Source of the DNA: Psilocybe cubensis
Taxonomy: Eukaryota
Length of the DNA: 64,000 nucleotides
Direction of reading: 5' to 3'
NCBI GenBank assembly: GCA_017499595.2
Contig: CM039003.1
Location: 3,534,001 to 3,598,000 of the forward strand
Below, one piece after another: positions 8,556 to 64,000 of the stretch (its first letter is position 1; every line of letters begins with the position of its first letter). Under the pieces are notes generated by a model, which saw only the letters and a list, made by a program, of their open reading frames with translations, was not told the DNA's origin and searched no databases. The position numbers and the translations under genes were made by a program.

Positions 8556-11500
8556 ATGGCCTTAATGGCCCTCTTTTTGTTAGCATATTTTCTCACTTCT
8601 GGGAGAGCCCAAACACAGGCGACATTTTCTATATTCTCCAATGCATCCGACATCTATCCTCTCCCTTCAGACCCAAACTGCGCCAATGCACTTGCTACAC
8701 AGTTTCAGTGCGATAGCACAATTGCATTTACAATTCCGAGTTCTGCGTCACCTCTACCAAACCTCACCTCATCTGATTTGTCGTCGTTATGCACCCCTAC
8801 TTGCTTTTCTTCGCTTGCAAATACAATTAAAGACATCGATACGGTCTGTTCAGGATGGCCATATATACTGGGAGATACAAGCTACATCCCATCTTTTCCG
8901 TTTGTATTGAACATTTGGATCAAGCGGAACAAAGTATTGACAAACCGCCTCTCAAAATCTATAGGGTTCGCTGGCTTCAGTATCATTTAAACCTGGTATT
9001 TTCGAGCCAATCTAGTTAGCCACGTACCTCCCTAAACCAAAATTCCAGTCCTGTGTCATGTCGGGATCCACATTTTGTCTTAACATTGCTCAAGTGAGTT
9101 TGTCATGACAACTGCCTCGAGAGCGTGTGTGATTAAGACACTTTTTAGAATTCGACCTCAACAACCGATACCTCACTACTTACTTTACCGAAATCTGAGC
9201 TCTGCTCTACGTGTACCATTCAACCCTTAGCAGTTCAAATGGAAAGCTCCTTTGGGTGGGATTCAAATTTGTAAGTTATCATCTAGCTGGGTGCACAAAA
9301 TCTGATAATGTCCTGGGAAGCGTTCAAAATTGGACTGCGATACAGACTGAATGCGGAGTCTCGTTCGACAATACTATTCCACCGAGTCTTCTACTGAACG
9401 AAATCAATGCCAATGCTACAACATACAATGTCACTGCGTGAGCCAACATCTAACTTTTACACCATACTTTTTCTTAGCGTTGTTAATTTTACCAGGAAAC
9501 CAATGGTTGCACCAGCATCCGCAGATAACTGCGTTTTCAGTACCTATACAGTACAGGTACGCTGAATGCACTAAACGGTCCTGCAACTTATCCAACCTCC
9601 AAGTCTAGAACGGAGACACATGTCAATCCATTGCACAAAGTCACAGCCTCTCGTATGACCAACTAATATCGGTCAACGGGCTGGACGTCAATTGTACCAC
9701 GCTTCCAGCCGTTGGACAGCCCATATGTCTCCCTGGATTCTGCACCCTTTACACAGTACAAGCGAATGATACATGTGTTACGATTTATCAGGCAAACAAC
9801 ATTGGCTGGACACAGCTCATTGCATGGAACCCGTGTGTCTGCATGTTTGTAAACATCGTCTCTAGCTCTGAATCGTCGTTTCATGCATCTAGGCAACTTG
9901 ATAGCTATTGCTCCAATATCGATAGCCAAGTCGGGAAAGGGATATGTATTAGTCCGCCTGGGGGTGGATATACACCGACTACGACGGTGCCAATTGTCAC
10001 AGGTGACTCCATATCTACTAGGTTCGATCACGATGTTAAGGCATTTTGTCAAATTAGGGTCGCCCACTGCTATTGCGTATGGATTTTAAGTATTTCGAAA
10101 CAAATTTATCTGATGTAGCTAATGCAGTACACCTACTGCCGCAATCGCTCCAGGCTCTGACCGCGAATGCGGTCTTTGGTACCAAGCAGTGGCAGGAGGT
10201 GAGCCAGTGCTTTGTCAATGCTGGTACTTCGGATTTACCCCTGTTACAAGACACTTGCCCACAAATAGTACAGCATTTCCAAATTACGAACGACACTTTC
10301 TATGAGGTGAGCCATCTTCTCCACTTTATTTCCAACGTAAATTCGTAATTAATATTTACCGTGTAGTTGAACCCCTCTCTAGACCAAAATGTGAGTCGGC
10401 AGACCGTAATCTTTGGGTGTCTGTGTCTGAACACATTGTCACATAGTGCGATAATCTGCTAGCAGGGTTTGACTATTGCGTCGCCGCTTTTCAAGGTGTG
10501 TCTCGACGAAGATCATTCTATATCGTATACCACAATCTAAATAAATTTGTGAGAAGATACTTCTGAAACAACAACGACTCCTCTGCCTACATCCACCTTC
10601 GCGTCTATGATAAATTATTTCAGTGAGGATTGATCAGTAATAGGTGCCAAAACCTAGCACTGATACCTTTATATGATTCAGATGGCTCCGATTTCCCAGT
10701 GGGTACAGGATTTGCCCAGGTAACTACCACCGGAAATGTCAGCGCTTCCCCGGTGACCGTCCCACCAACTGCCCCTACTCGGACCCAACAAGTTATCATT
10801 CCCCCTACAATTGCCCCAGGAACGATAGATAATAGCACATGTCTTCGATGTAAGCCGTAAACTATCTAACAAGCTCTATACTCACTCGATTTCACGGCGT
10901 ACATGAAGACTACACTGTCCAACCGGGTGATACTTGCTTCGGGATTGAAGTTATATTCAATATCCAGGATAGTTGGTTCCATCAGTGGAACCCACAGGTC
11001 TGCATTGCTTTATTTCTACATGGCCAATTACGCGAGCTGAGACCCGATTAGGTCAACTCGGAATGCACTAACATAGAGGTGGAAAGACCGTGTTCTACTG
11101 ATCCCTGTAGTAATTCATGACTGACTACCACTTAGGTCGGACTGGCGTATTGTGTATATGGGCCGATTACATTCACGACTCCCATCATCACGCTTCTACC
11201 AACATCGACTGTTGCATCCTCGACTGTCTCAGCTTCTAGCCCTACCTCTGGGATTCCATCAAGCACTCCGACGAATATTGCGAGTGGTACGATCACAACG
11301 GGATGCTTAGGTCTGTCCAGTCTGTAAGCTCCTTCAGCTCGCCCTATTAACGTCTTGAAAAATGTCAGAATATTACACAGTTCAGTGCGTCGCTGTATTC
11401 TTCATTGATCAATCGGCAACAATTAAGATTCATTCACAGATCTGGTGATTTCTGCGGAAAGATAGACGATCAATTCGGGATCACACTAGACCAACTGCTT

Positions 11501-12406
11501 ACTTGGAATCCTGAAATGTAACATTCTTTCAGTTCCTTTTTAAGTCCTCATATTAACGTCAGAGCTGAATAGTAATTCTGGATGTGAGCCTAGGCCTCTA
11601 ATTCAGCGTCTTTATTTCGACTGACAGGACCTGGAAGGCACAAATATTCAAGTAGGTTTGGCGTACTGTGTCAGCGGCCCAGCGAGCACAGTTTCTTCCA
11701 GTTCAACACCTGTACCAAGTCCAACAGCCTCTGGAACAATGTAAGCTGCCAGCGTGTCTAGTATCTCGTGATATGACTGATCGAAATGGTTGCAAATAGA
11801 ACCGTCGGATGCACTGAATACTACACCGTTGTGTAAGTTCAATTTAAAAATTGCTTGAGTCGTACGTTAACAGTCCACCAGCTCAGGCGACTCATGCCCA
11901 GCGATAGAGTCAAAATTCTCTATAACGTTTGCGCAATTCCAACAATGGAATCCAGAAGTTGACGCTAACTGTGAGTCGGCTCCGCCATAAAAGGCTCACC
12001 ATCTAACCCACACGCACATAGGCGACAATATCTTCGTTGGGCTTCAATACTGTGTTGCTGGTCGTGAGTATCCAAACAACGCAACCATATAATCCATATA
12101 CTTACCTTGATCTAGCGGCGTCCACAAGCACGATCACCACTTCCCCAGCTGCAAGCCCAACGGCAAGTGGCACAATTACACCGGCACAGGGGTGCAAGCT
12201 ATATTACACCACAGTCTCTGGAGATTTCTGCTTCAAGATCGAGACCCAATTCAATATCACCTTGGCGCAGTTCTTGGAATGGAATCCCGAGATTAATTCT
12301 GATTGCACTAACCTTCAACTGGGGCTCGAAGTAGGTGATTCGCAGATCCATCCATGTCAAAATGCTGATGGCCGGACATTACTAGTACTGTGTTTCTGGT
12401 CCTTGA
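8556..12406 (+). CDS. Secreted multi-LysM chitin-binding protein (about 7 LysM domains), multi-intron
   Basis: Signal peptide [18 protein letters not shown] and a Cys-rich N-terminal domain, then repeated fungal LysM units such as YTVQANDTC...LIAWNP and [52 protein letters not shown]-stop, separated by S/T/P linkers. Confidence 0.92.
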
Positions 12407-12432
12407 GAGTGGCCTTTTTTTTGATATATACA

Positions 12433-12533
12433 GTATGAGGATGAACACAATGAACACACACTGCTCATCTACCAAATTTTCTCTTGTCTGATATCACCCA
12501 AATCTAAATCACTGCCTCGTAAGCTGAGTGGGT
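12433..12533 (+). repeat. 101-bp direct repeat, copy 1
   Basis: gtatgaggatgaacacaatgaacac...gtaagctgagtgggt recurs at 18495-18595 with about 5 mismatches. Confidence 0.9.
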
Positions 12534-18494: not shown

Positions 18495-18595
18495 GTATGA
18501 GAATGAACACAATGAACACATGCTGCTCATCTACCAATTTTTCTCCTGTCTGATATCACCCAAATCTAAATCACTGCCTCGTAAGCTGAGTGGGT
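18495..18595 (+). repeat. 101-bp direct repeat, copy 2
   Basis: Matches 12433-12533. Confidence 0.9.
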
Positions 18596-18999
18596 GAATG
18601 GGAATTTAGCAGGCTCAGTTTGAGAGCGGCATCTCTGGTCATAGACAATATTCACTATGAAAAAAATTGAACGCCCTTTCTTTCCTTCGTTCTATCTCCT
18701 GCATCCTTGACCCTTGGACCCGGATATTCCTGTCAAGTATCTCATTTGTTCAGACATCTTGCTGCAAAATGCATTCGGCACTTGGGATTCAAGGAACTGA
18801 ATTTCCCATGGTCACATGAGATCTTGATTATGTCAAAGATAACCGAATTCTTATCTCACTCCCCAACACCTTTGTGCGACAACGATATTCACACCATGAA
18901 AGAGTTGAATAGTGGTCAGACTTATCAATATTTTGTGGAATCCAAGGTATTTGTACTATATTAAATTTTTATTGGATACTAACTACTATTTGTTTGGTG

Positions 19000-47048: not shown

Positions 47049-47082
47049 GGGGGGTTTAGGGTTTAGGGTTTAGGGTTTAGGG
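47049..47082 (+). repeat. Interstitial telomeric array: G6 followed by (TTTAGGG)4
   Basis: Read directly from the sequence. Confidence 0.95.
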
Positions 47083-47084
47083 TG

Positions 47085-47120
47085 GGAGCAAGCACCGAGC
47101 GAAGCGAGGTGCGAGCGACT
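47085..47120 (+). other. GA-rich DNA hairpin with GCGAAGC mini-hairpin, copy 1
   Basis: GCACC-GA-GCGAAGC-GA-GGTGC, conserved in copy 2 at about 63866-63900. Confidence 0.7.
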
Positions 47121-47148
47121 TGTTTAAACTGTGAGTTAAATGGAAAGA

Positions 47149-47213
47149 AGCCAGAGGGCTGTTGGGGGATCCCAACAACCAGCCCTTTCGTCTTTATAGA
47201 CTCTTCAGTGGCT
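47149..47213 (-). ncRNA. Type I hammerhead ribozyme, copy 1
   Basis: Minus strand: AGCCA CUGAAGA GUCU-auaa-AGAC GAAA GGGCU-gguu-GUUGGG-aucc-CCCAAC-AGCCC UC / UGGCU. All core nucleotides and three stems are present. Predicted cleavage after CUC, between 47154 and 47153. Confidence 0.93.
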
Positions 47214-47907
47214 ATTCTTAGAAGGAATGTTCTAGACATCCGATGACAGCGCGTGAAGTGATGCTGCGCAGCTGTCATGTATCTTACCGACTATCACAAA
47301 TCTGTCAATGTTTATTGTCAAGTTAGACAGGTCTCTGATGAACAGAGTGTCACGGGTCGATGTGGCACATGGTAACCTGTCAAAAGTGGATCCAACACTT
47401 TTGTTCTTTGACATCGTGGGTTATTGACTGTGATGTGAATCACATGGATATAGAGTACTCTGGTTACGTGGCTCCGAGTAACCGCGACATGGGAATATTC
47501 ACATGTCTAGAGTATAAATAGCTTACCTGGGTCCTTACCTAACAATCAAACAATAGACTGATTGATTGTTGTGAATCTTAATTGGACAGTTCATGATCCG
47601 GTCCATCAAAAATGTTTCCACGGTACTAAGGAACTTTTCCCGAAGTACTAAGTAACTTTTCCCATGTACTAAATTAGATCCGGCCCTTCACAATCACATG
47701 CCGTTCGGAAGTTCACACGCCTACCTTACTTCCTAAGCTTATTCCCCCCCAAAGGGGGGGCCTTCGTTGCATTGGGCCTCCTGTTCAGAATTCCTGAAAT
47801 CTGATGCCAGATTCGGATTTCTTGACCCCAAAAACCCCCAAATACACTTTCAAAATATTTTATTTTGTACATATGGAGGTGCTACGTAATTAAATGTGTA
47901 TTTTACC

Positions 47908-48224
47908 GAGGCCGGCCTCCAAATTGATCGAGGCCATTGGAGGCCGGCCTCCAAATTGATGGAGGTCACTGGAGGCCGGCCTCCGTCTAAAAATAACTTT
48001 TGACAGGGACTGGAGGCCGGCCTCCGTCCAAAAATAAACAGAGCGAGGCATCCGAGGCCGGCCTCCATCTAAAAATAAACAGTGACAGGCACTGGAGGCC
48101 GGCCTCCGTCTAACAATAAACACGTCAAGGCCACCTGAGGCCGGCCTCGATTTGTACGCGCGTCGTACGTGCGAGTGGAGGCCGGCCTCCGCTCGTACGC
48201 GCCAGCAACTGGAGGCCAGCCTCC
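47908..48224. repeat. Array of 9 GGAGGCCGGCCTCC-type palindromes, mostly ~41-bp spacing
   Basis: Copies start near 47908, 47939, 47971, 48012, 48054, 48094, 48137, 48177 and 48211 (last is a variant). Confidence 0.9.
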
Positions 48225-49164
48225 AGTGTGGGTCCCAACCAGATAGGTCACGTGAATGTACGCGTGTCGTTGTTGGTTTACTGCTCGTCGCCGCCTGTCG
48301 CTGCCCCCACCACCTTCGCTCGCCGCCCACAATGACACGCACATTGCTGCGTGTTGTTGCACTGCCACCCCCGCGCCTTCGCCGCCGCCGCCGACTCCCC
48401 CACCCCGCCGCCGCCCCGCCTCCACTTGCCGCCCACAACGACTCGCGGCAGAGGAATCGTTTGTGTTTGTTTGTATTTGCTCACACTATCCCTACCCGCT
48501 CTTCCGCTTTCGCTCATTCTCCTCCGCTGCCGCCTCTTCCTCCCGGCACCCGTACTCACAGCAAACAACGGTGGCCCGCCCGCCCCCGGCCCTGACATCT
48601 ACCAACAACTGCAACAACAACAGCAACAGCAGCACATCTCATTGCACGCCACATACGCAAACCGTTCCTCGCTGTACGACCACCTCTCACATCAGACCCT
48701 CAACACCCTCGAGCTGTTACTGCTGTTCTCATTGGCGCACGAGCGTGCAGGGTTTGCGATGCATATGTTTGGAATGTCCTGCCAAGTTGAGTAAGTACAT
48801 GCCTACTTCTCTCGTCACCGCCGCCATCCCATACCATTCCGTCGTCAAGGCCGACATCAACAACCGTGAGGGAGGGCCGCGGGAGAAGTGTCATGATATC
48901 CTTTTTGGGTTATCATGGCGGACAGTTGTAAGTTATCTACGCCGCTGACATTGCGCTTTTACCCTTTAGCACTTCAGCGTGTCTGCGTTTGGATGGGGTG
49001 GTGCGACCCATGTCCACTGCCAGTAAAGAGGTCAGTCATTTCAACAGCCTACATCGACACCCTGTTACCCACTGTTCGTTCTATCCTCCAGTTTCCTTCA
49101 ATGCCGCCATTACGCGTGTCGGGTGCGTTTTATGGGTGAGAGAAAGGCAACCTGGTGAGCGCAG

Positions 49165-49790
49165 GCAGATTGAGGGCGGTCTGGTAGGGACAAATTGCGA
49201 TGGCAAGCAACGACGAGCTGAGGATAGAGGGAGCGTGCTGGCCAGGTGCGTCAGTACTGTAAATACGGGTTGTGGAGATTTGTTTACCCTCGTCTCCTTG
49301 TTGGCAGTCATGCCAGCTTCCTTTCATTGTGTGTCTACACCATGAAAACAAATCCAACGCGGGCCACACAGCAAACGAAGGCGGATTGAGGGCGGTCTGG
49401 GAGGGGTGGGTTGCGATGACGAGCAACGAGTTGACGACAGAGAGGGGACGCTGGCTAGGCGCGTCAGTGCTGTCAATACGGGTGGTGGAGATTTTTACTT
49501 ACCATCGTTGGCAGTCGCGCCAGCGTCCTTTCGTTCTGTGCGTACACCATTAAAACGAATTCAATACATGGCAACACAGCGAGCGGGGGCGGTTTGAGGG
49601 CGGTTTGTGAGGGACAGGTTGAGATGGCAAGCAACGACGAGTTGATGATAGAGGGGAACACTGGCTAGGTGCGTCAGTGCTGTCAATACCGGTTGTGGCG
49701 ATTTTGCTTACCGTCGTTTCCTTGTTGGCAGTCGCATCAGCATCCTTTGATTCTGTGCGTACGCCGTTAAATCAAATCCGACACATGTGA
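49165..49790 (+). repeat. Three degenerate tandem ~210-bp units
   Basis: ttgagggcggt...agcaacga...gcgtcagt(a/g)ctgt(a/c)aatac...gttggcagtc recurs from about 49170, 49385 and 49593. Confidence 0.8.
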
Positions 49791-52751
49791 TGACACTCAC
49801 CGTAGTGTCGCGTTCAGGGGGCACGTTGCCGACGAGAGGCTGCGTCGTCAGCATTGCTCTCACGTTGAGCTGCGCAGCAATGAGCGGGAGGTGAGCACCC
49901 AGCGCGTCGTTCATGGAATGCAACTCACCATGGTGCATCCTTGAAGCTGTTCTGTCAATGTCAAGCATACCGTCAGCGCCGTTGTCAGAAGCAAATACAG
50001 CACGGCTTACCATCTCGAGCAACTTGCTGTACAGAGCCGGAAACAACGAGGGAAGCGTGGGGGAAGAGGTCCTTTGACTGACCTGAAGGCTGAAGAGGCA
50101 GGGAAGAAGAGGGGATGAGGGGATGAAGGATGCCAGCAAGGTGCGTACCCTTTATATACCCTGTCGTGGTTCGACTGTTACTAGTACGCCTGTTACATGT
50201 CGTAAGTAGGCCGAAAATACAGATTTTTTTTTCGTGTCGCTTGTTAGTGTATATTCGGGTTATGCGAGGTGCGATTGGTGTGTTGAGATTCGGAATTGGA
50301 TAGGTTTTCTTGCTTGAATGTTGGATTTGAGGTCAGGGTGGTATGGAATAGTTGAAGAAAATCATCGTACGTCTAATCTATCAAACCGAATACGACGTGA
50401 AATGCTCAACAGCAAGTGCTCGATAATGCATTCATTGAATTTCACTCGAACATCTAATAAAGATTTGAACACGAGAGGACACAAGTACGTTTTTAGTTAT
50501 CTTTAATCCTGAATATCTATACCAGAGTACATTTTTGCCTTGGAATACCCCTGAGCAGAGATAACGAAATAACATGAAATCTCTCAAAACCATCTTGAAA
50601 GTTGCAAAGCCCTCGATGACTCGGGAACAGGTACGTACACCCAGACCTCGAACTATACGCACTCAACACACAACTCGCGTTCTAGCACTCCCGGAATGCG
50701 GACACTTGTTCTGGAGTCAACACACGGAATACTCATCTTCTGCTCTTCTGCACAGCGACAAATTGGACGCCGTTGCTTCTGCTAGTGGATGTGCCGTTAT
50801 TGCTTAGCCGAGGGTGAGCGAGGGTGTTTGGGCTAGTACAGGGCACATGGAGCCGAGTTGTAGGGAAAACAATTGGAATGAGGTGCAATGCCGATTTGGG
50901 AGAGGAGGTGGAGGTGTGGTTGGGTCGGATTTGCTGCGGCAGTTGTAACATTTTGGCCGGGTGGGTGGTTGTGATTGTGCGCGTATTTCTCGTATGCCCT
51001 GTTTCAAGCAGACGCGCAGGGATACAACTGCACTGAGGTCATATTTCCAAGGTCTGTGTACTCTCTCTTCATCACTTGCTAAAGTAATCACCATCTTGTT
51101 AGGATGGTATGCCCCAGGAGATTGAGATTCACTGCAATGATGCGACATTTGGTGAGCATTGTCACCTTCTCATTTAGAGTTTTCTGGCTTGAGATACTTG
51201 CTATATTTTAGTGAGTACATTACATCACAAGATCGACCGTTCAACCGCGTTTATAGGTATTTATTTAGTTGTGGGAACAAGAGCGGGCGATGAGATTGAC
51301 ATGGGGGGGTGAGTATTTGTTCCATTACTTCCGAATCCGATATTGATATCCTTACTACATCTCTTCGTCTATTTAACCGTGTGGGTAAGTCTTCCACTTT
51401 CAAAGTGATGTAATAATATCGAACTGCCGCACCGAAATCTCCAGATCTCTGTGTCAGTGTTTCTACATGCCTTCGTCCCCTCTGCGCCCGTTTTAAATAT
51501 TCTGTATGATCCCAGCAACTCGGTACTGTGGGGATACGTCAAACATAATGTCGTTTAGGTCAGAAATCAAGCTAATATTGATTCAAGGATACAAACTCAC
51601 AATTCAGCATAGAATCCTCGCTCATTCATTTGTCATTCTTGCCTTGATTAAGCGGACTTTGACTGACTCTAAGGAAGCAGCTTCAACACAATCTACGGCC
51701 ATTTGAAGTTGAGTAACATTCATATTACTGCCAATTATTGTATTTTATTCCTCATTATTGTAGTCAAACCTATCGTACATCGATGTATAAACTAGCTACT
51801 AGTATGATAGACACATATATACATATCTATCATCTTGCAGACCTCGATAAAAGTTCAAAAATTCTAAATTTAAACAAGTTCTCCTTGAGTCCCAATGTAT
51901 TCATTCACTAGTGAATTCGCAAGAAGAGCATATTAGATTAGCCATGGAGACCCTGTAACGGAGTTATACCATAGTTTCAAACGCACCTAAACACAATACT
52001 TCGCCGCAATGATGCTGTGAGCCGAAGGAAAATTAGCACCACTCCTCCCCCCAAATCACGAAATTACACAATTTCAAACATTTGCTGCATCTAACTGACA
52101 TTCAAACATTGCATAAAGGAGCCGGGTACCTCCGAAGGCAAGATGTAAAGAAGCTGGATGCAAGTCAATCGAAGTTGAACATGTATAAAAACATTACATT
52201 CCGTTTAGACGCACCTGGGCACAAAACAAGGAAATCCGGGTCTGCCATGAGGATCCTGAATAAAATGAAATTATACATTGGAAGAGATTATGTGAGATAA
52301 AATAAACGAGTCACTCACACGGCATCCAGATGAAAATTGGGACTGGCATTCGTTAAGCGCCCAAAACGTCTCTAAGACGGTACTTTTATATATTTAACAC
52401 ATATCGTCTCTATTTCCCCAAACATCAGTGACAAAGCAGTGCATTAGGAAGGGCAGAGGGATAAATACATGATATACAGAGCTACATGCTATTCCAGCTC
52501 CAATTCCGCGTTTCTAGCGTATGTCCATCAGCAATACCGGGGCCAAGTAGGTAATGATCCGTAGTGATACGTAATTCTGTAGTGCCCATAGTAACGGTCC
52601 CATTTGGGTAACACACACTGATGTACCTGTAGCTTGGTACCAACGTGACATGGTACTCTGTAGTGATCTGTATTGTAACGCGAGTGCTGTGTAGCGGCGT
52701 GTAGCATGCTTACCATGGTCCATACCCCTCTGTATACAACTGACATACAAA

Positions 52752-52843
52752 TTGTAGCATACTACCACAGATTTGTAGCATGCTACCACAGATTTGTAGC
52801 ATGCTACCACAGATTTGTAGCATGCTACCACAGATTTGTAGCA
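52752..52843 (+). repeat. 21-bp minisatellite, about 4.4 copies (TTGTAGCATGCTACCACAGAT)
   Basis: Read directly. The unit contains the palindrome GTAGCATGCTAC. Confidence 0.9.
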
Positions 52844-53111
52844 CATCATAACACACTGCAAATAGGTACAAAGGCATATATAGTATCCACTTTCATTTGT
52901 ATAGTGTTGTGTGGCTATTCCTGCAAGTGCCAATATCACACTGAAAACCGAACCATTTTTGACTAAAATGGGCAATTTTAAAAATAGATAATCTATGTTT
53001 GGATCGGACCAAACATGTTTCTATTAGTAGATGCATAACTATTAATACGTGACGATCTAAATATGGTATCTTCTAATCCACACCCGGCAGCTGCCCCGCT
53101 CATTCACCCAA

Positions 53112-55853
53112 CTACCCTTCTGGACCGTAATCTAGTTCCTCCTGTGGGATAGAATGGAGAGTCATCCTATAAGGGTTGGGGGGGTTCTTCGTAGGCCTCA
53201 TAATAGCACTGATTATGGAGATCTAAATGATGCAAAGAAAGAAATGAATAAAAAAAGATACACACCATCCTTCCTCAGCCACTTCCCTACATAAGCGAGC
53301 CAAGCGAGGACCTTGGTTCAAGGTATCCTTCTCTGCCTCTGCTGCAACCAACATGCAGGCATCATACCTCAGGGAGTACTCCTCTCCCTTGAATTCAATA
53401 CCCGAACACGGACCACCTCTTGCAGGGTCAATCCCATCCCTCCACTCCTCAAGACAGTTGTGGATCTACAGCAAAATGCTTGTTAGCAAGGCAGTGCCAA
53501 TAGCAGGAGAGAAATCAGAACTACACAACTGGCCACAAGCGCAAATGCTTTGTGGGGAAGCGATGTCTTGAAGAAATCCGTCTTTGTCTCCAGACCTTTG
53601 ATGGGGACTGCAACCCCTTTTGTAGGATGGTAGAAGAAGTCCAGACAGATCTTCTTCACAAAAGGATGTCCAAATGGGACATTGTGATACTGGAAACAAA
53701 TCAATGAGTGGTAAGCCAGGTAAAATGGACGGCGAACTCACTCGGGTTTTGGCAACACCCCGGTGGTATTTACCATTGAGTAGCCAATATGCTACCCTGT
53801 CCTTGATGTATTCGATCTCCCCCATCTGATTTTCAAACATATTGGGGTTCGCGGCGATGACCTCCGACGGGACTTCGAGGCCATACGCATTTTTGACCAG
53901 GGGTCTGATCATCGTCTTCAGTCTTCCCCGGAAGGTTGACGCGTAGACAAATGCCTAATGAGAACAGACACGTTAGTACGATATCCTTAAAAGAACACGC
54001 TAAAAATATACCGTTACGGCGGTATTCCTGTCTAGGAGCGTTTTTTTCTCTGCAAAGTTATGTAAACCAATTAACTAAAATCACAGAAGACAGAACTTAC
54101 TATCAGGCAACACTTTATCCGTGTTCATTCTTTCAAACACGGTTACTGCCATCTTCACACATCCATCGGCGACTAATAAGTGATTTTCCCGAGTGGGAAA
54201 GGGGACCTCCTCTACTACATACAGGCACATCAGTTTGCGTGCAATTTTGAGCACATCTTTCCAGTAACCAGTAAAGGATGCAACTGAATGCTTGGATACT
54301 TCCCTAGCAGAAGAAGTACTGGACTTCTTATGAGCGATGTGTGCCTCACCAAGCACCTCATCATCGTCAGATGCTTCGTTGTTCTCCCTTGTCAAACCTT
54401 GGGATACGGCTCCTTGCGAAACAGCCGCCTTGCGCAATGCCTCAGGGCGAGGTGGCTTGTTCGCCCGATTACGACGACGGTGTTCTTGAAGAACATCCTC
54501 TACTTCCACAACCTATATCAATAATACATTAGCTAGACATTAAATACAGCAGAGAAATGATTACATGGGGGGAAGGCTGGCGGAGCAATGCCCTTGCTCT
54601 CCTCTCCTCTTCATCATCGGAAACTTCATCAACCACTGTCAAACATAGGTGGTAAGCAAACACGACATAAAGGTGGAGTTAAACCAACGCTGGGCAGCAG
54701 GCTCTTCATCATCTTGACCCGCGTCGTCGTAACCTTCATCACCGTCGACATATTGGAGAGCTTCTTCATCCCCAATATTCTCTTCATCAATTCCTTGCAT
54801 GCATTCGTCCCCTGATGCTTCCTCAGATCGCCTTTCACCGTCACTATCCCCCTCTTCCTCCTCCTCATCTTCCTCCTGCTCTATGCCTTCGTAATCTTGT
54901 TGCTCCTCCTCGTCTTGATGGCTGATGCTAGCCTCTTGGTGGGCGTTATAGGCTGCTGGATGCACTGGCTGTTGTACGGGGGCATGTTGTGTTACAGGAT
55001 GCACTGGTTGTTGTACGGGGGCATCGTAGTATTGGACAGAATTCTCTGCCGCAGGGGCAGCGTAACGCTGAACAGGATTTGCTGCGTGTTGTACAGGGCG
55101 CGGGACAGGATGTGCTGCATGTTGTACGGGGCGCGGGACAGGATGTGCTGGCTGTTGTACCGGAGCAGCGGGGCGCTGGATGGGGGCAGTGGGTCTTTGG
55201 ACAGCATGATCAAGCTCTGAGTGCTCCTGATTTCTCTGAGCTGCACGTTGGATCTGGACAGGAGGGGGGGCACCCTGAGATTGTCGTGGGCTTGGTTGGA
55301 CTTGTTGGACATCCCAAGGAGCAACTGAAGGCGTTGGCCTTGGTTGCATTTGAATAGGGGGACCTACATGCGACACAACGGTAACCTAGACGTGCTTGGA
55401 AGATAGCAAATTTAAGATTAGAACAGTAGACTCACCCCATTGCGAGGTTTCTTCAAGGGAGGCGCCATCTCATTTTCAGGCATGGCGCTAGTATCCACAT
55501 TGGCGGCCCTTGACTTCCTCTTCCCAGCCTTCTCGAAGTCAATAAAAATGATGTTAGATGTTTTCTCCTGCCGAGCATTTACTCCACCAAGACCACGGGT
55601 GCTTCGGATAGGACGGCCATTGGGGTCTTTTTAATAAGGAGTTCAGTGAATCTCAACAAAGAAAATGCTAGTACAGACCTGCTTCAGGAGCCTGAGGTGG
55701 CTCGTTTTCTGCCACGGAGCTCGGACCCTGTTCAACCTCTTGTCCTAGATGGATAAAACATTAAGTATGCGGATGTAATGAGGATATATAGATGATACCT
55801 TCAACCGTGGCATTGACAACCGCCTTTTTCTTTTTGGATCCTTTAGGTGGCAT
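53112..55853 (-). CDS. Large protein with Q/P-rich and acidic tracts and a C-terminal DUF6532-like domain
   Basis: Start MPPKGSKKKK (NLS-like), PVQ repeats, E/D tract, then WKDVLKIARKLM...VPFP, STFRGRLK, PFGHPFVKKICLDFFY and IHNCLEEWRDG. DUF6532 assignment is from motif recall, not a search. Confidence 0.7.
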
Positions 55854-56647
55854 ATTGGGCTGGTTTGACGGTTGTAATGCAGAAATAGAGACAAGGGGTG
55901 GTGAATTATGTCAAGCTACGATCCGGAGGTATGCGAAATTAGCCTCTTTTCAAAATTTAAGGCGACGGACATCAGTCAAAAATATATCGTGCCATATAGA
56001 AATTACAGGTACTGAAACAGTACCCCTATCTACTACAATATATCACATATACATTATAGTCAGATTCCATGTCCTACTTAGAGTTAAGTAAAGTTACATC
56101 TCAGAGGGGAAAAGACTGCACCTATCATGATCGCGGATTATCCTGAGGGTGCATTAGAATAGGTATTCCCCGACTAATGAGGGATACCCGTAGACGGGCG
56201 ATTTCGAGCTGGGTTTCAAACAGAAGATCTTCATTGGATTTATATGCTCGCATAATGTCGTCCATATAACAACGTAGCTCTGCCTGAACTTCTAGACACC
56301 TCTGTTCAGTGAGTTGAAATTGGTCAAGAGCCTTTTTAACGGCCTCTATGCCTTGATTCTAGAGGAAGGTGGATTAAAACATGAAAATAGACCTAAAACG
56401 AAGAACTCTGCCTCTTCGGGTATGCTAGGGAGGCGGCGACTTTGAGGTTGCGAAGCGTTGTTGCTATTGGAATGGTTCATGATAAAGATAGGCAACAATT
56501 TGGTGTGGTGGTGGTGGCTTAAGTTCAAGACGATCAACACATTACGAACCATTAGCACTGTTGATTGCCGAAATACACTTAAATAGAATGACATAAAACC
56601 CGTATATGTCTACAAGTCCGTGTTCGAGATACAAGTAATGCTGCACC

Positions 56648-59007
56648 CTACATATTTACAACTTTGACACCACGGGACGGGGGGAAGATTTGAATCAAAG
56701 ATGTTGTCGGAAAAGTTGGGAATGTATCACCGCGTTTCATACGAGTAACGGGATATTTATGTACAACGCAAATATCCTTGTCTATTGATCGTATCCTGAA
56801 TATAATCCCCATTGAATCGCCCTCAAGCGGTGTAACGAAGTCGTCCTTTTTTACAGGATGAATTGGAAACAACACTGATTTCGGTAATGTCAGTGTACGT
56901 CCCAGTAATGCTAGGTGGGCAGTATCGTCGGTAAGGCTGAGAAGTTCCATCGCCACTTGATGGTCGCCCTTGGATTTGTCTACGACTTTTAATCGTAATC
57001 CTTTCAGCTTATCGTATTTCGTATCTAGCCAGTGAGCGACGGTTGAGGGTAGTTCTGCGATTTCCACCGCCGAGTGTACAGGTATTGCTGAATACGGATT
57101 CCATGCAGGAGACAGAAAACTTGCTACTGTGGACGGCATTGGAGTTGCTCCACCAGAAGGCCCGGGGTCTTGAGCGGAATTTATATGTTCTCGGTTGCTT
57201 GAAACAATGTCAGTAAGCACCTGACAGTCAACGAATCAAGTGAAACCACATACTGTATAATTAAATGTGATATTTTAATACGTTCCACCCTCTGGTTACG
57301 AGCTTCCAGCTCAACGTCTGCAAAGCCGTCGGGGGTAGTGCTTTTAACGATGCCATAGTACCCCTTGAATGTATTATTCCCGACAACGATGACACTCAAA
57401 CCTATATAGACGTCGTTGTGGTCTCTTTCTCCAAGCTTTGACGAATGACGCTTTCGCGGGCGAAGAGTAGCATGGGCAGGGGGGACGTAGAATATGACTG
57501 TGTGGATGGGCACAATGACCTGAAAAATGTGTTGAACACTACTGAGACAAAGAGAATGACAGTTCACCTACTTCGCGTTCGTGCTCTGGGGCGATAATAC
57601 AAACAGATCTTCCATCAAAGTCTGACACCCATCCATGGAGATCTTTGTGATCCCCTTCAACGACTTCAACACTATCGCCTATCTGGAAAGCTGCACGTAG
57701 ATCGTGTAGTGCAACTGCTTGTGTTATACCTTGGGAGGGGATGTGCACTTCCACCTCAGCGTCAGAAACACTCTTGACCGTTCCAAAAAGACCTAAGTAT
57801 TCTCCACCAATAATTTTGACTCGATCATATCGTTTCAGTCGAGTCATGGAGATGGCTTTCGAGGCTTGCGCTAAGGTCTCCGTCGTTACAAATGGACACT
57901 CGCGAAATTGCTCCAACTCGGACGATGTTGGGAGGACATTGGAAAGATATTTGAGATCGATGGCGTCGAAATCCGTGATAATAAATCCATCCTGGAATAT
58001 CCTGTCGAGGTGCGATTTCTTGATGTTGTCCGGAGGTCTGGGGATAAGAACAACACTTTTCCGACCCTGGAATGTGAACACAAGGCCGGTAGCATTTGCG
58101 TAGGTCGTCCAAGCCTTACGCTTTCCAGCAACCTTGACCCACGATTGGTCTTCAGGGCGTGAGGGTGGGGGATGAGATAGGATCTCCATACATCTCTCCG
58201 AGGATAGCCTAACTAAATGTGTCGGATTAAGCTCTCTAACGAGGCAGGCTAACGTATGCGCATGTTGCATTGATGGCGCCTTGACGTAGATTCTCCCAGG
58301 AATTGAGGATTGAGCGAAGACAGACCGGGCAAGGATGATGGGAAATGTAGGGTTCGTTGACATCTGCATAATTTTGAAAGCGACGGCCTCTTCGCGTCCA
58401 ACCTATCACTCGTAAGGTGATCAATAAATGCTGACTGAAGACTTATATTATTTTTGCGTACCTTGCAACCTATTTCATACATGATATCAGTCGCGGAAGG
58501 CATATAATTATTATCACCAAGTCCTCCTGGTTGGGGATTGCCATATTTCTGTATAAGTTCTCGTGAACTAGATGGCTCTATATCATTGTCAGGACGAATT
58601 TTCATGCGTGAAGGCAGAAGCATGGGCAACAAATCGCTCCATTCATCAGCGTTATCTGTATTTTGCATGGCATGATATAGCCGAGAGTGTGCAACACGTT
58701 CCTCATCCTCAGAGTATTCATCGTTATCATTCACTGTATGTCAGAACCCATTAGCATCAGTACATATTGAGCAGAATATATGTAAATTATTGGAACATAC
58801 GTAGTTGGCCCCCTTCATAATCAAGCTCTTCCGAACTTTCATCATCATCGGAAACCGCTGCTTCAATGTCTATGAAGGGATTAATGTCCTGATTTTTTGA
58901 GATCATAATTAAATTTCCCTGAAGTTAGTGATTAGATGGAGGGTTGGATTAGTACACACTGTGCGGTTGCCTAGGCTGTCAAGTCGTCTGCGTTTATAAC
59001 TAGACAT
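56648..59007 (-). CDS. Divergent Spt5/NusG-family paralog (acidic N-terminus, NGN, several KOW motifs; no C-terminal repeat region)
   Basis: NPFIDIEAAVSDDDE, NGN-like YEIGCK/VGREEAVAFKIM...PGRIYVKA, and KOW motifs YDRVKIIGGEYLGLFGTV, FQIGDSVEVVEGDHKDLHGWV and IGLSVIVVGNNTFKGYYGIV...VELEA. Confidence 0.85.
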
Positions 59008-59432
59008 TGTGGGTCTTAAAGACTGTTAATCGATGTTCATCTCACTTAATTTATCATCTTAACTTGTGATAATTTATTTTTAGATACTACACAACCTATT
59101 ACTATGATAAGACGCTATGATGAACGGAAAGAGAAAACATATGGTGAGAAACACGCTATTTCCGGAGCGATTCTTTAGGGTAGGTTTCCCGTCCTGAAGT
59201 CACGAGTTGGTTAAAAAAACGCCCCCTTACATCAGAACTTGATTGTTTTTCTTTCCGTTCGTCATAGCGTAGTACCCCTCCCCATAGATTTAACATACAT
59301 TCTAATAAAATAGACATAGACAATACTCTAGACACTCTATAATAGTTTTCGTTCAGTTAAAATTCATCTAGTTGAAAATTTGAGACACCAGAAAAAAACA
59401 CACAAAAAAAAGTAAGTACCCAAAGAAATAGA

Positions 59433-62400
59433 ATGCAGGGTGAGACGTTGAAGTTTTGTAGTGCAAGCCCAGAAGATTTCCCCCATTGCCCGACTCCAAG
59501 CTGAAGAAATTCTGGCGTTTCCCTTCGAAACGCAGGTCGTTCGTCAGACTCTGGAAAACATGTTGCCAGAGTCGCACCCACTCCGCGTAGGTCTTAATTG
59601 GATTGCCATTTATGGTACTAATATCAAGTTTCTGTAGAGGATGGTGGATTTCCTCCGACGATATGAGGACTTCACCTTTTTGAATTACGATGTTTCATCA
59701 TCGAGCATGCGAGCGGCCATCAAGTATAGGCAAAGCTTGGCTGCCCTTCAGAACAGCATCGTAGAGACACCCTGCGTAACCTCGGCTACATGGGAGCAGG
59801 CGGGTAGCTTATTTGCAGCATACCGTCTACTCGATCTCGTAGCGTTGTGGCCAGCAGCCTTTGGACCATCGTTGCCGGTGACCGTGCCCCTGAATGAAAT
59901 ACAGGCCAGCACAGGAACTAAGGAAATATTTTCACGGTTCAAGGTATGCGATCATGAAGTCACTCAATGTTAATTCTTAATTTTCAAACAATTATTGTAG
60001 CTTGTAGATGACTTGAAGGACTGGCCGGCAATGCTCTGCTCTGCCAGGAAGCGCATCCTCAGAGCCGACTCTAAGTCGCACAGAAACATCAACACCCCTT
60101 CTATCAGTGACACGCCGTCATCCGCTTTCACCCAGGGCGGGCCCTCGGAATCAACGCTATTACTCTGTCTGGCGCGTAACCACTTCAAGGGTGTTGTGGG
60201 GAAAATAATCGGGAATGTGTACTGCGCCTCGCTACACTACCAAATCTTGTCAGGAATGCGCGGTATGAAGGACGATGAACACGTTCTACCAGACATTCCA
60301 ACGGACACGGCTACTCTTGCAAATCTCTAGTAAGTTTTCTTTCCTCTATTCATTGATACAATCTGCTCAACATACCCTAGTGCAAGCGGCCATCCTGATG
60401 CTGCGTTGTTCCTCTCAGAGGTCACGCCATCTCATTTAAAAATTCCTCTGCATGTCGCCCTTTTCATATCCCCCATCCTTCTTTTTGTGAATAAATCTTG
60501 GTATTCTAAGAAATGTGACCGGGAGCAGCTGCTTAAAGTAGGTGTATCCACATCCTCCCAGTTTAACTTGGATTAACGCACTCCTTTAGGCCTCAAAAGC
60601 GCTCGGTAATTGTCGCCCCCGTGTTCTGCGTGAAGTGGAGATGGAAATTTGGAAAATCATTGCAGCGCAAAATTGCGACATCCAGTCAGCCTTATATAAA
60701 CTTGTTATCTCAGACTACTGGATGGAATGCGAGCGGGTAATTGCACAAGATCCCGCGTTTCACTTTTTCATATGTGTGTTCTACGTACTGTAACAAAATA
60801 ACAATTTAAACTAATAATTGGCCAGCGTCAACAAGCAGCGCCGAGGTTACAGCAAATTCTAACCTAGCAAGGCGCAGCACTGAACCACACGGTAAGTTAT
60901 AAGCAAAGTCTGCGTCAATTACATGATTTAAATCCGTTTAAAACAGCTCAACTTCAGACCGTTTCCCATCATGGTGAAAAAACCACCTGTGAAGGGTCCG
61001 ACGCAGACGCGGAGGGTGACGATGATCACGAAGTGGACACGACGGAAATGGTCAGCATGGGTCAACGGGAGAACGGGGACAATATGGTCCCTACCTCAAA
61101 TATACAGCCTCCGGAAGACACGTCTTCAGTGGCTGGCAAGGATGTCAGCATGGGTCAACAGGAGAACGGGGACAATACGGTCCCTACCTCAGATATACAG
61201 CCTCCGGAAGACACATCTTCGGTGGCTGGCAAGGATGTGCCCACGGACGAGCAACCTGGTTTGCCGCGGAGTGATGATATTGGATCTGGTCTACTTCAGA
61301 CTGAGAATACTGGGCCCTCATCTGCAGGGGATTGTGAGATGAACGTCGATCCGGAGCAAGCTGATGTCGACCATCAAATGGAGGATGGTCCACATACCAA
61401 TGGTCCAGAAAATTTGGGAGATGGCGGGGCTGGACAAGGAGCTGAAGGGTCTTCTGACGAGGCAAATCGTATGTCGGAAGTTCACGAGGGCGAAAAGCAG
61501 GGGCAAGACGGAGAACGACCCGACGAGGAGAACCGAATGTCAGAAGATGGTGAGGAGGAAAGGCCAGACGACAGTTCGTCGGACAATGAGACCGAGAAGC
61601 AGGGGCAAGGGGATGTTCCACCAGTCCAGGAGGACAGAATGTCGGTCGATGGAGAGGGGGTAGGCCCAGAGCAAAACAATGATTCCTCAGACATGGAGAG
61701 GAATACATTGGAAGACAGCCAAGGCGAAAAGGAGGGGGAGAACGCACCTCCTGCTCCTCTTATTTTGAGGATTCCTCCTGTTTCCCAGATAAACAGGAGC
61801 AAAAACACCACGGCTGACTCCTCTCAGAAAGGGAAAGGGAAGGGCCGGCAGGGCCTTTCCAAGCGGCCTCCCAAACGCAAGCCGACGCAGGCTACCGACA
61901 CATTTGATTCGGACGACGACCTGTGTATTGATGTCGATCTGTACGACAGCAACACCACCCTTGATGTCGTCAGCACTCCGGAGAAGGTGTATGGCACCAA
62001 AGTTTGGTCCACCTACAACGGTCGTGGCCAACTTAAAAGTTTCTGCGTTGTTGCCCATGTAAGTCATTCTCGATATTGATTTTTTCGTCATTTATTTATT
62101 CTCCAAACAAGAGTCAAGCCGACGTGGATCGTGTTGAAAGGGTTCTGGAATTGGTCGAGAGTGACTACGTCGATGGAGTTCCATTGCACATAGCACGTCC
62201 CGAAGAATCATGTTTTGCGGTATTCGACCGCAGCACCACGAAATCCATGTATCTGATGGAGTCTTTCTCTGAAAGGAACGTCGTCCTTATGTCTCCTTCT
62301 CAAGAGGAGTCTATTTCAACTTGCTCCGACGAGTTCTACAGCCAGGTACGTCGCCATATGGGTGATATGACGAGCACCAGGTCAATCCAAGGTGTGTTTC

Positions 62401-63789
62401 CTCTTCGATGTTTTGATTTTTCTTTCTGCGTCTCATGCTAATGGCCGTAACAGATATGTCGACCATGTCGTCTAACCCCATCGAGAGGATTAAGTGTGGG
62501 TCCCTCTCTCAGGTCATGGAAGCAGCGAGGATGAAAGGCAAAAGAGGAAAGATCCTCAATGCCCTCAACATCCCTTTACCTCATGCAGGCGCTCACTCTT
62601 TTGACTTGAGTACTGAGGCGGCTGCTCTTCGGGCTACATCTGGTAGCTGGAAGTATAGTACCCCCGTCCCATTTGGTGATATGTCATGGGGACTCGTAGC
62701 TACAGAGGGGGCATTTTCAGATATCCATATCGATGCCAATGGTTTCTGTTCCTTCATCCAACCTCTTCATGGACTGAAGCTGTGGATTATCATGTATCCC
62801 AGACGGTTGGATGTTGACCTTTCTTCTGACCGCCGTGTATTTCTGGGAGACAAGCTGGATTACGGGGAAACGCACCACCAAGACTGGATTTACGAGGCGA
62901 TTGTTCTCGATAACCAGTCAGAACTGTATGTGATTTTTGAATGTCCTACCCATTTGATTATATTGACGCTACTTTGAAAAACAGCTTCATGAGACCGAAT
63001 ACTCTACATATGGCGTATTCTATCTCCTCAGTGGTTTGCCGTGGCGGACATTTTTACTCCTCCACTTCCTTCGAAGAAACCCTGACAGGAATCATTCACT
63101 GTTTTACCGCTGGATACAGGGCAACGAATACGAATCATTCAACGTCCCGATTTTTCCTGCAGCAAACCATACATTGGTTCTACAAGGTTTTGGTTGAAGG
63201 TGACAGCGACCCAGAAGGTATGAGGTTTTTTACCGTTTCCTACAAGATATCTGATTCTTTTCTTCTATTTTCTCTCAGATTTTTATGAAATGTACCATGT
63301 CCCATTCTACAGTACGCAGTCCGGATACTCGAGCTTGATAGCTCTGTGCGTGTGCATGATCTTGGCAAATGCGCTCGACTACGAGACCTATCGAAATCCC
63401 GATCAGATGTTCTCCACCAAGACTTCGGCACAGTTAGACGCATGGATGCGGTGGGATACCAACAGCCTGAGCGACGAAGAGCGCAAGGCGTGCATCTTTG
63501 CCCGTGGCGAAGCCTTGGCTATTCTAGAGTGGCTATGTCATCGCACGAAGTCCATCCACTACATGATTGAGACGGACAAAAACAAGGATGCACAAAATAT
63601 CATGGCGACAGAAAAGTTCCATGAAATGATACTTTGCCGCTATGCCCGTATGATTCTAGCCTACGACGCAGAAGCCAAACATAACAACATTGGTGGTGCC
63701 CCTTGCTGTACCGACACCAGTTTGCTTTTTGTCCAGCTTCAGGGCGTCTGCAGCGGAGAATTGAACAAGGTTATATGTCGCAGTATCGA
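59433..63789 (+). CDS. Large JmjC-domain 2OG/Fe(II) dioxygenase-like protein, 3'-truncated by telomeric repeats; start uncertain
   Basis: Multi-exon, with an acidic region at 61033-62079. JmjC core WGLVATEGAFSDIHIDANGF...GLKLWII (HxD) and FMRPNTLHMAYS...GGHFY (distal His). The last exon reads ...KVICRSIE straight into GGG TTTTAGGG. Confidence 0.8.
61051..61238 (+). repeat. 93-bp (31-aa) coding tandem duplication
   Basis: VSMGQ(R/Q)ENGDN(M/T)VPTS(N/D)IQPPEDTSSVAGKD occurs twice. Confidence 0.9.
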
Positions 63790-63866
63790 GGGTTTTAGGG
63801 TTTAGGGTTTAGGGTTTAGGGTTTAGGGTTTAGGGTTTAGGGTTAGGGTTTAGGGTTTAGGGGGGG
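63790..63866 (+). repeat. Interstitial telomeric array, 10 units (TTTAGGG, with one TTAGGG and one TTTTAGGG)
   Basis: Read directly from the sequence. Confidence 0.95.
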
Positions 63867-63932
63867 AGCGAGCACCGAGCGAAGCGAGGTGCGAGCGACT
63901 AGTTTAAACTGTGAGTTTGAAATAGAAAGAAG

Positions 63933-63996
63933 GCCAGAGGGCTGTTGATTGTTATCAGCAGCCAGCCCTTTCGTCTTTATAGACTCTTCAGTGGCT
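63933..63996 (-). ncRNA. Type I hammerhead ribozyme, copy 2
   Basis: Minus strand: GCCA CUGAAGA GUCU-auaa-AGAC GAAA GGGCU-ggcu-GCUGAU-aaca-AUCAAC-AGCCC UC / UGGC. Core is identical to copy 1. Confidence 0.93.
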
Positions 63997-64000
63997 ATTC

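Follow-up and report, generated by a model that had tools for sequence, protein, structure and literature searches.

A 64,000-nt stretch of the Psilocybe cubensis genome, hereafter the window (all coordinates are window-based, with position 1 as its first letter), contains two separate protein-coding genes arranged head to head. The minus-strand gene encodes a diverged relative, a paralog, of the elongation factor Spt5 that has NGN and KOW domains and lacks the C-terminal repeat region (CTR). The plus-strand gene encodes a JmjC-like protein whose core is a JmjC Fe(II)/2-oxoglutarate (2OG) oxygenase of the KDM2/KDM7/PHF8 (JHDM1) type with a complete predicted metal and cosubstrate site. The adjacency of JmjC-like and Spt5-like genes exceeds chance, and most members of the JmjC-like family have no such partner. 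The gene pair is real, moderately novel and built from known kinds of parts; its function is something that we infer, and whether the two genes are functionally coupled is in our judgement a close call, falling slightly short of even.

To our knowledge, no transcription factor other than Spt5 is conserved across all domains of life. Its paralogs are rare, and those that we know of, from plants and ciliates, are each the mark of a non-coding transcription pathway dedicated to a role linked to genome defence. If a fungal Spt5 paralog recurs beside a KDM2/7-type JmjC gene with intact catalytic residues, this would suggest an undescribed transcription-chromatin pathway in mushroom-forming fungi. 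In addition, the pair would give a first functional handle on a large Agaricales JmjC expansion whose members are hypothetical proteins in the databases.

A divergent gene pair

The window is fungal DNA, with short GT-AG introns and a G+C content of ~45%. The two starts lie on opposite strands, separated by 425 bp from 59007 on the minus strand to an ATG at 59433 on the plus strand; a preliminary description of this DNA had placed them roughly 0.5 kb apart and head to head, and this spacing held. The choice of ATG 59433 as the start of the JmjC-like gene fared less well, being out of frame with the first homologous exon; it joins the exon frame of 59452 only if a 22-nt intron is assumed. The start of the gene is accordingly put at ~430-450 bp from that of the Spt5 paralog. 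The stretch between the genes (59008-59432) is a candidate bidirectional promoter. No second copy of the JmjC-like or the Spt5-like gene was found within the window.

By tblastn, the P. cubensis paralog P0002 (1373 aa) is colinear over its residues 36-1291 with the JmjC-like gene from 59461 to 63775. The gene has at least 10 exons, with GT-AG introns of ~50-60 nt, and across the poorly conserved stretch 60590-62061 an open splice path was confirmed by script. About 1250 codons are read without a frameshift or an internal stop, and the gene is a real one.

Adjacency in other loci

In the reference protein set of P. cubensis the pair occurs twice, with 98-99% identity between the copies. P0185, the window copy of the Spt5-like protein, shares its 90% cluster with JR316_0004105/0004106, and the latter are found on a contig of 4.19 Mb, at a distance of two locus tags from the JmjC-like JR316_0004108. 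The adjacency proposed for other copies was seen in the second P. cubensis copy, which is one recent block duplication or, conceivably, the other of two haplotypes of one locus. The idea that JR316_0004106/0004108 represent the window locus in another strain was dropped; P0185, on another contig, is identical to the window.

A metagenome scan with the JmjC alignment yielded 80 loci, 70 of them distinct, in which the Spt5 partner was sought with a hidden Markov model (HMM) of the paralogs. Thirty-one loci were assessable, having an upstream flank of 5 kb or more or a downstream flank of 2.8 kb or more; 11 of these had both. An Spt5-like partner was detected in 2 of the 31 (1 of the 11 with both flanks), namely in L007, which was seen a second time as L008, and in L035. 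The JmjC genes of L007 and L035 keep the catalytic residues and are among the best matches of the window gene, and L007 and the window have no homologous genes in common apart from this pair, Spt5-like and JmjC-like. Given 3-10 Spt5-type genes per 46 Mb (a rough genome size), a Poisson estimate for two of them falling in ~217 kb of flank was 1e-4 to 1e-3. In a domain tree, the three linked JmjC genes all lie within one weakly supported 34-row subtree. The preliminary description had asked whether the divergent pair is conserved across copies and species; the adjacency recurred in L007/L008 and L035, and the divergent orientation did not, both genes being on the same strand there.

Between the Spt5-like and JmjC-like genes of L007, a fragment of SF3B1 (human residues 483-533, E 7e-13) was found at 4999-5283 on the plus strand. 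Part of another core nuclear gene has thus been duplicated into this locus as well.

Catalytic core of the JmjC-like protein

The JmjC assignment rests on profile and structure comparisons, not on Pfam, and several family members carry the UniProt name "JmjC domain-containing protein". In an alignment, 32 homologues spanning both core exons share the pattern W.L..GA...H[IV]D..G..T...G.K.W ... L.MRPNT.H.V.T...IC.GGHF...TNT.H. A family profile of 38 rows (A1), compared with the sequences of solved structures, matched ceKDM7A (9.6e-9), KDM2A (3.6e-6), PHF8 (1e-4), KDM7 (2.4e-4) and PHF2 (5e-3), and the HxD, Lys and distal His of the family lined up with the metal ligands and Lys of ceKDM7A and KDM2A.

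A structure model was made for a homologue from Agrocybe chaxingu (P0013, 432 aa), which is 34-37% identical to the window exons. The AlphaFold2 model had a predicted local distance difference test score (pLDDT) of 88.6 and a predicted template modelling score of 0.90. The top Foldseek matches were all KDM7, PHF8, PHF2 or KDM2A (E 4e-10 to 5e-9; best probability 1.00). VIA-align gave Z 18.1 for PHF2, KDM7A and PHF8 (root-mean-square deviation 3.7-3.9 A over 268-273 residues), 15.6-16.2 for KDM2A and 10.5-11 for KDM6 and KDM4. The likeness to KDM7/PHF8/PHF2 and to KDM2 (JHDM1) covers the JmjC barrel and the helical domain that follows it; the JHDM1-type helical extension is present in the model behind the double-stranded beta-helix JmjC fold. 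The expectation that the domain folds as JmjC was thus borne out on the homologue.

The HxD...H iron triad noticed earlier is also kept (H 62726, D 62732 and H 63007). HID occupies codons 62726-62734 and the H of NTLHMAY 63007-63009, which places the two His 74 residues apart after removal of a 59-nt intron; the His-to-His spacing of KDM2A and PHF8 is 72 residues. In KDM7/KDM2A-type enzymes, the 2OG-binding residues are a Lys and a Thr/Ser three residues before the first His. Putative 2OG contacts of this kind are present as K 62777 (GxKxW) and S 62717, three residues before the first His, and the GxKxW Lys of the family aligns with the GEK/GGK Lys of KDM7 and KDM2A. Of 94 domain sequences of the family, 86 retain both His, the Asp and the GxKxW Lys.

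For the protein as a whole, a model of the full-length homologue P0128 (mean pLDDT 69.4) shows a helical N-terminal region at 1-335 with moderate confidence, a disordered acidic linker at 341-532, a confident alpha/beta sub-domain at 540-650, the JmjC barrel at ~680-860 and a helical C-terminal domain. Unlike KDM7 and KDM2, the family lacks PHD, CXXC, F-box and LRR modules; it has instead its own helical N-terminal region, the long acidic disordered linker and the extra alpha/beta sub-domain, and it is missed by the Pfam JmjC model. It comprises hundreds of diverged copies.

Some results count against this assignment. The Pfam JmjC model matched neither the window exons (no match at E<=1) nor any of 16 full-length homologues (0/16 at E<=0.01), and the fold comparison was made with P0013, not with the window's own protein. 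In addition, the eight family sequences without the full set of catalytic residues include the nearest paralog, P0002 (65% identity), in which R, S and N stand at the positions of the first His, Asp and Lys and the second His falls in a gap.

P0002 and P0153 (JR316_0012510 and JR316_0001703) are near-identical 1373-aa proteins, the closest paralogs, encoded on two different P. cubensis contigs. P0153 likewise has RIS instead of HID. This branch is recently duplicated and probably inactive.

An expanded family in Agaricales

When a 157-aa exon of the gene was searched against 1.84 billion representative proteins, 435 clusters were obtained at E<=0.001. Named members come from Psilocybe, Agrocybe, Coprinopsis (CC1G_11256), Panaeolus, Galerina, Pluteus, Tulosesus, Candolleomyces and Infundibulicybe, and all of them are "hypothetical" or automatically named "JmjC domain-containing". 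The family is a large, fast-duplicating expansion, limited to Agaricales as far as sampled. Literature searches turned up nothing relevant on it. The JmjC protein FfJMHY, from an Agaricales study, is described as a JmjN+JmjC protein of the KDM4 type and belongs to another family (PMC9147824).

On metagenome contigs, the DNA similarity between paralogous copies ends at the gene itself (4.6-5.3 kb), and no terminal inverted repeats were found around the paralogs. No neighbouring open reading frame (ORF) family recurred across divergent JmjC-like loci, and no transposase was found near the JmjC-like genes. A transposon origin of the gene is unsupported, the similarity being gene-sized, without terminal inverted repeats or recurring neighbour ORFs. 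Basidiomycete TET/JBP dioxygenases are likewise multi-copy 2OG/Fe(II) genes and are linked to mobile DNA (PMC12730594). In contrast to those transposon-borne genes, JmjC is a different dioxygenase family, and the genes described here have no transposase, terminal inverted repeats or conserved neighbour.

The Spt5-like protein

The window's Spt5-like protein is identical over 278/278 main-exon residues to P. cubensis P0185, a 603-aa protein annotated "Transcription elongation factor SPT5" on a 3.62-Mb contig. Pfam detected KOW domains in series after the NGN, all exceeding the cut-offs (KOW2_Spt5, 51.1 bits, 1.1e-13; KOW, 32.0 bits, 9.5e-8; KOW5_SPT5, 31.1 and 27.7 bits, 1.7e-7). The Spt5-NGN match in the window ORF was 17.2 bits (E 0.005), below the cut-off of 22.4, and the NGN passed it in the paralogs of L007 (29.0 bits) and L035 (26.7 bits). 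A profile of the paralogs matched human SPT5 from NGN to KOW3 at 7.7e-25, yeast SPT5 at ~1e-23 and plant RDM3/KTF1 at 9e-13, and the protein is colinear with NGN-KOW1-KOW3 of SPT5. No CTR was seen, as P0185 stops just past the last KOW-like stretch, and no tandem repeat was found in 56651-57235.

The paralog proved rare. When its single sequence was searched against 5.8 billion proteins, no Spt5-like relatives were returned among longer proteins, and among proteins of similar length the sole match was the paralog's own P. cubensis cluster. Fifteen clusters came from a profile search, consisting entirely of unnamed metagenome proteins akin to the L007 form, and a metagenome scan with the window ORF gave no match. 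The window paralog is 28% identical to that of L007, and that of L035 is more distant still. No fungal Spt5 paralog in print was found by literature search.

The plant paralog SPT5L/KTF1 (RDM3) serves RNA-directed DNA methylation, a silencing pathway, and bears a long WG/GW Argonaute-hook tail. What the fungal protein has in common with SPT5L/KTF1 and with Paramecium Spt5m is that each is a supplementary Spt5, with NGN and KOW domains, in addition to the essential Spt5. The fungal protein differs from SPT5L in that no WG/GW tail was seen and in that its gene adjoins a JmjC gene. Paramecium Spt5m serves non-coding transcription in development (PMC5416832), and in both plants and Paramecium the Spt5 paralogs link non-coding transcription to silencing or genome defence (PMC5416832, PMC7714444, PMC4412961).

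Truncation of the window copy

The preliminary description had ended the JmjC-like gene at 63789. This proved not to be a natural stop: at ...CRSI/E the reading frame runs into ~10 TTTAGGG units (63789-63862). The window copy is 75 C-terminal residues shorter than the second genomic copy, P0151. Over 600 cleanly aligned residues the two copies show 5 differences, which indicates that the truncation is recent. The window's own copy may be impaired by the truncation, and the second copy is whole.

It is a real possibility, although we lean against it, that the window copy is a dying gene, a non-functional remnant, and that any function lies with the intact second copy. The loss of 75 residues that include a basic KRRRL tail weighs against a working window gene, and the out-of-frame ATG at 59433 and the close paralog P0002, already devoid of catalytic residues, fit such decay. 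Moreover, the 90% cluster that contains the model of the second copy holds no NCBI protein model for the window copy. Against a dying gene stand the long frame, open over its ~1250 codons, the intact catalytic residues and the few differences from the second copy, which make the truncation a recent event.

Shared function or shared neighbourhood

If the two genes are functionally coupled, linkage would be kept because both proteins act together on shared templates. With its NGN domain, the Spt5 paralog would attach to a polymerase engaged in transcription. The JmjC enzyme, working on that template too, would either take off methyl-lysine marks (methylation of H3K9, K27 or K36 or of H4K20, by analogy) or hydroxylate a protein. 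The pair would jointly set the transcription state of repeat-rich, subtelomeric chromatin, in a direction that could be either opposition to silencing, like Epe1, or non-coding transcription feeding silencing, as for plant SPT5L and Paramecium Spt5m.

Fission yeast Epe1 is a single-copy protein recruited by Swi6/HP1, and we know of no Swi6/HP1 link for the JmjC-like family. Epe1 is a JmjC factor that opposes heterochromatin (PMC6576747), and by this description it provides a precedent for the anti-silencing idea. The known analogues, so far as such analogy goes, point both ways on silencing, and the specific version in which the pair acts in anti-silencing of a subtelomeric element appears improbable to us.

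Several features of the compared loci speak against functional coupling. The Spt5-like neighbour is absent from 29 of the 31 assessable JmjC-like loci, and the two P. cubensis copies are not independent evidence because they are 98-99% identical. The tree does not unite the three linked JmjC genes in one clade (3 changes, no better than shuffled labels), and both orientation and spacing differ in all three linked loci. The missing neighbours, the scattered tree positions and the differing orientations are what would be seen if adjacency came without shared function, with fast-evolving accessory families piling up in repeat-rich subtelomeres, being block-copied between ends and meeting by co-location, not by selection. 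The very large size of the JmjC-like family (435 clusters at E<=0.001 for one exon), its duplication as gene-sized units of 4.6-5.3 kb, the telomere-type junctions that bound the window block and the SF3B1 fragment (E 7e-13) between the L007 pair, as expected where duplicated pieces collect, agree with this explanation as well. We nevertheless consider it somewhat unlikely: the Spt5-like gene is rare and yet adjoins a JmjC-like gene in two independent loci (Poisson 1e-4 to 1e-3), no other neighbour recurs, and both proteins are of the nuclear transcription/chromatin type.

Chromosome-end junctions

TTTAGGG is the type of telomere repeat used by fungi of this group; in the related genus Stropharia, telomeres consist of such tracts, ~100 bp in length (PMC8874372). 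The tract at 63789-63862 is not terminal; the next sequence is ~90% identical to that after (TTTAGGG)4 at 47052-47083. The two (TTTAGGG)n tracts have the same orientation and lie 16.7 kb apart, with no telomere tract between them, and these telomere-type repeats support the word "subtelomeric" used in the preliminary description. No telomere tract of at least 3 units was found in any of the 80 metagenomic loci.

On the minus strand, both tails that follow the tracts show by eye a hammerhead motif in which no core position is missing, with stem I AGCCA/UGGCU, CUGAAGAG, stem II GUCU-AUAA-AGAC, CGAAA and a long stem III, the distal part and loop of which differ between the two tails. The Rfam RAGATH-1-hammerhead model scored 29.1 bits for the first tail (E 0.016, whole model) and 22.5 bits for the second, against a gathering score of 56.3, and Hammerhead_3 scored 19.5 and 18.0 bits, also below its gathering score; at the gathering threshold, Rfam found nothing in the whole window. 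The centroid fold of the first tail was a three-way junction.

Endonuclease-deficient Penelope-like elements (Athena, Coprina) attach to telomeric overhangs and carry reverse-complement telomere repeats beside a hammerhead motif (PMC8557442). Because the telomere-repeat/hammerhead junctions of the window resemble Athena/Coprina attachment, we conclude that 63789 was probably a chromosome end at one time, that it healed and that an element of this kind was added to it later, and likewise 47083. The junctions would then show how the chromosome ends of this fungus break, heal and extend. The likeness to Athena/Coprina and Terminons consists of reverse-complement telomere repeats and a putative hammerhead motif at an older telomere tract, twice in the window; unlike those elements, the window shows recognisable tails only and no reverse transcriptase was detected in it. 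Pfam found no reverse transcriptase in window ORFs of at least 100 aa, nor in ORFs of at least 50 aa in 46-56.7 kb, where DUF6532 was the only Pfam domain that turned up.

A very unlikely alternative is that the 16.7-kb block 47083-63788 is itself a 5'-truncated, Terminon-like endonuclease-deficient Penelope-like element with the Spt5 paralog and the JmjC gene as passengers, attached at 47083 by its hammerhead/telomere-repeat 3' tail and capped by new telomere repeats at 63789. The proximal junction, (TTTAGGG)4 followed by a putative minus-strand hammerhead motif, is an Athena/Coprina 3'-end signature. The distal end, an intragenic break capped by (TTTAGGG)10 and followed by the second, ~90% identical tail without an intervening telomere tract, would suit such an element, as would the mostly minus-strand larger ORFs of 47-59 kb and a second copy that extends past the break point, as a less truncated element copy would. 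Terminons reach 40 kb with many extra ORFs (PMC5408684), and spliceosomal introns have been noted in Penelope-like elements (PMC4209133). However, this giant-element explanation keeps a low probability because the window has no reverse transcriptase match; in addition, the hammerhead scores are below the Rfam gathering scores, the JmjC gene is antisense to the supposed element, L007 and L035 have no telomere repeats, and the same junctions are explained if the chromosome end was deleted, the telomere healed and short tails attached afterwards. Also very improbable in our view is that the Spt5 paralog and the JmjC gene form a co-travelling cassette of telomere-attached, hammerhead-tailed Terminon-type blocks in mushrooms, in which case an element at the chromosome end would supply an elongation factor and a demethylase of its own and so stay transcribed within subtelomeric heterochromatin, and it would be the first such giant telomeric element, and its Spt5 paralog the first dedicated one, described in fungi.

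A further putative hammerhead core was seen at ~18580-18700 on the minus strand of the metagenomic locus L032, with a stem II identical to that of the window (CUGACGAG-UCUAUAAAGA-CGAAA). It is followed by a degenerate CCTAACCTAAA remnant and lies ~8 kb downstream of the L032 JmjC-like gene.

Features of the window

Table 1. Positions of the gene pair, its predicted domains and the telomere-type junctions in the window, and of the linked genes in two metagenomic loci (last two rows, numbered within the locus).
Feature	Position	Strand	Basis
Internal (TTTAGGG)4 tract	47052..47083	+	Repeat scan
Tail bearing the putative hammerhead-ribozyme motif (core 47186-47208), beside reverse-complement telomere repeats	47083..47233	-	Rfam, fold, comparison with literature
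Predicted Spt5 paralog: acidic N-terminus, NGN and KOW domains, no C-terminal repeat region	56651..59007	-	Pfam, profile against PDB SPT5, P0185 identity
Intergenic stretch common to both divergent starts, 425 bp	59008..59432	.	Sequence
JmjC-like gene (predicted KDM2/KDM7-type oxygenase)	59433..63788	+	tblastn of P0002 and P0151, sequence, open splice path
Exons of N-terminal helical region, JmjC-like protein	59461..60780	+	Colinear with P0002 residues 36-388; helical in P0128 model
N-terminal exon limits, JmjC-like gene	~59461-59586, 59638-59943, 60001-60329, 60381-60537, 60590 to ~60773	+	Splice sites read from sequence
Exon of long acidic low-complexity linker, JmjC-like gene	60947..62058	+	Matching stretch disordered in P0128 model (341-532)
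93-bp tandem repeat inside acidic linker exon, in frame	61051-61238	+	2 copies, 94% matches
Exon of predicted alpha/beta sub-domain, directly before JmjC barrel	62112..62391	+	P0128 model 540-650, pLDDT >93
JmjC core exon 1: Ser 62717, His 62726, Asp 62732 (HID), putative 2OG Lys 62777	62454..62925	+	Sequence, alignment, profile
JmjC core exon 2: predicted distal iron His 63007 (NTLHMAY), GGHFY motif	62985..63218	+	Sequence, alignment
Exon of C-terminal helical domain, broken at CRSI/E	63281..63788	+	75 residues short against P0151
(TTTAGGG) tract, ~10 units, abutting the broken JmjC-like reading frame	63789..63862	+	Sequence, repeat finding
Start of hammerhead-motif tail (core 63969-63991), clipped by the window end	63863..64000	-	~90% identical to 47083-47217
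L007/L008 (one sequence seen twice): Spt5-like gene; JmjC-like gene; 2.4-kb gap	1598-3831; ~6275-10606	+; +	HMM
L035: JmjC-like gene; Spt5-like gene	1-2214; 2998-5515	+; +	HMM

In the proximal part of the window, ordinary fungal genes were observed, namely a GH18 chitinase gene at 5001-6414 on the minus strand and LysM-domain genes at 9609-12435 on the plus strand. The stretch 47890-49600 is G+C-rich (~57%) and contains arrays of a palindromic unit that contains GGAGGCCGGCCTCC, with periods of 32, 41 and 82; it has overlapping ORFs on both strands, without a family match. At 53466-53954 on the minus strand, an ORF with a weak DUF6532 match (E 7e-5, slightly under the cut-off) belongs to a series of ORFs that lie on this strand from the first telomere-type junction up to the Spt5-like gene.

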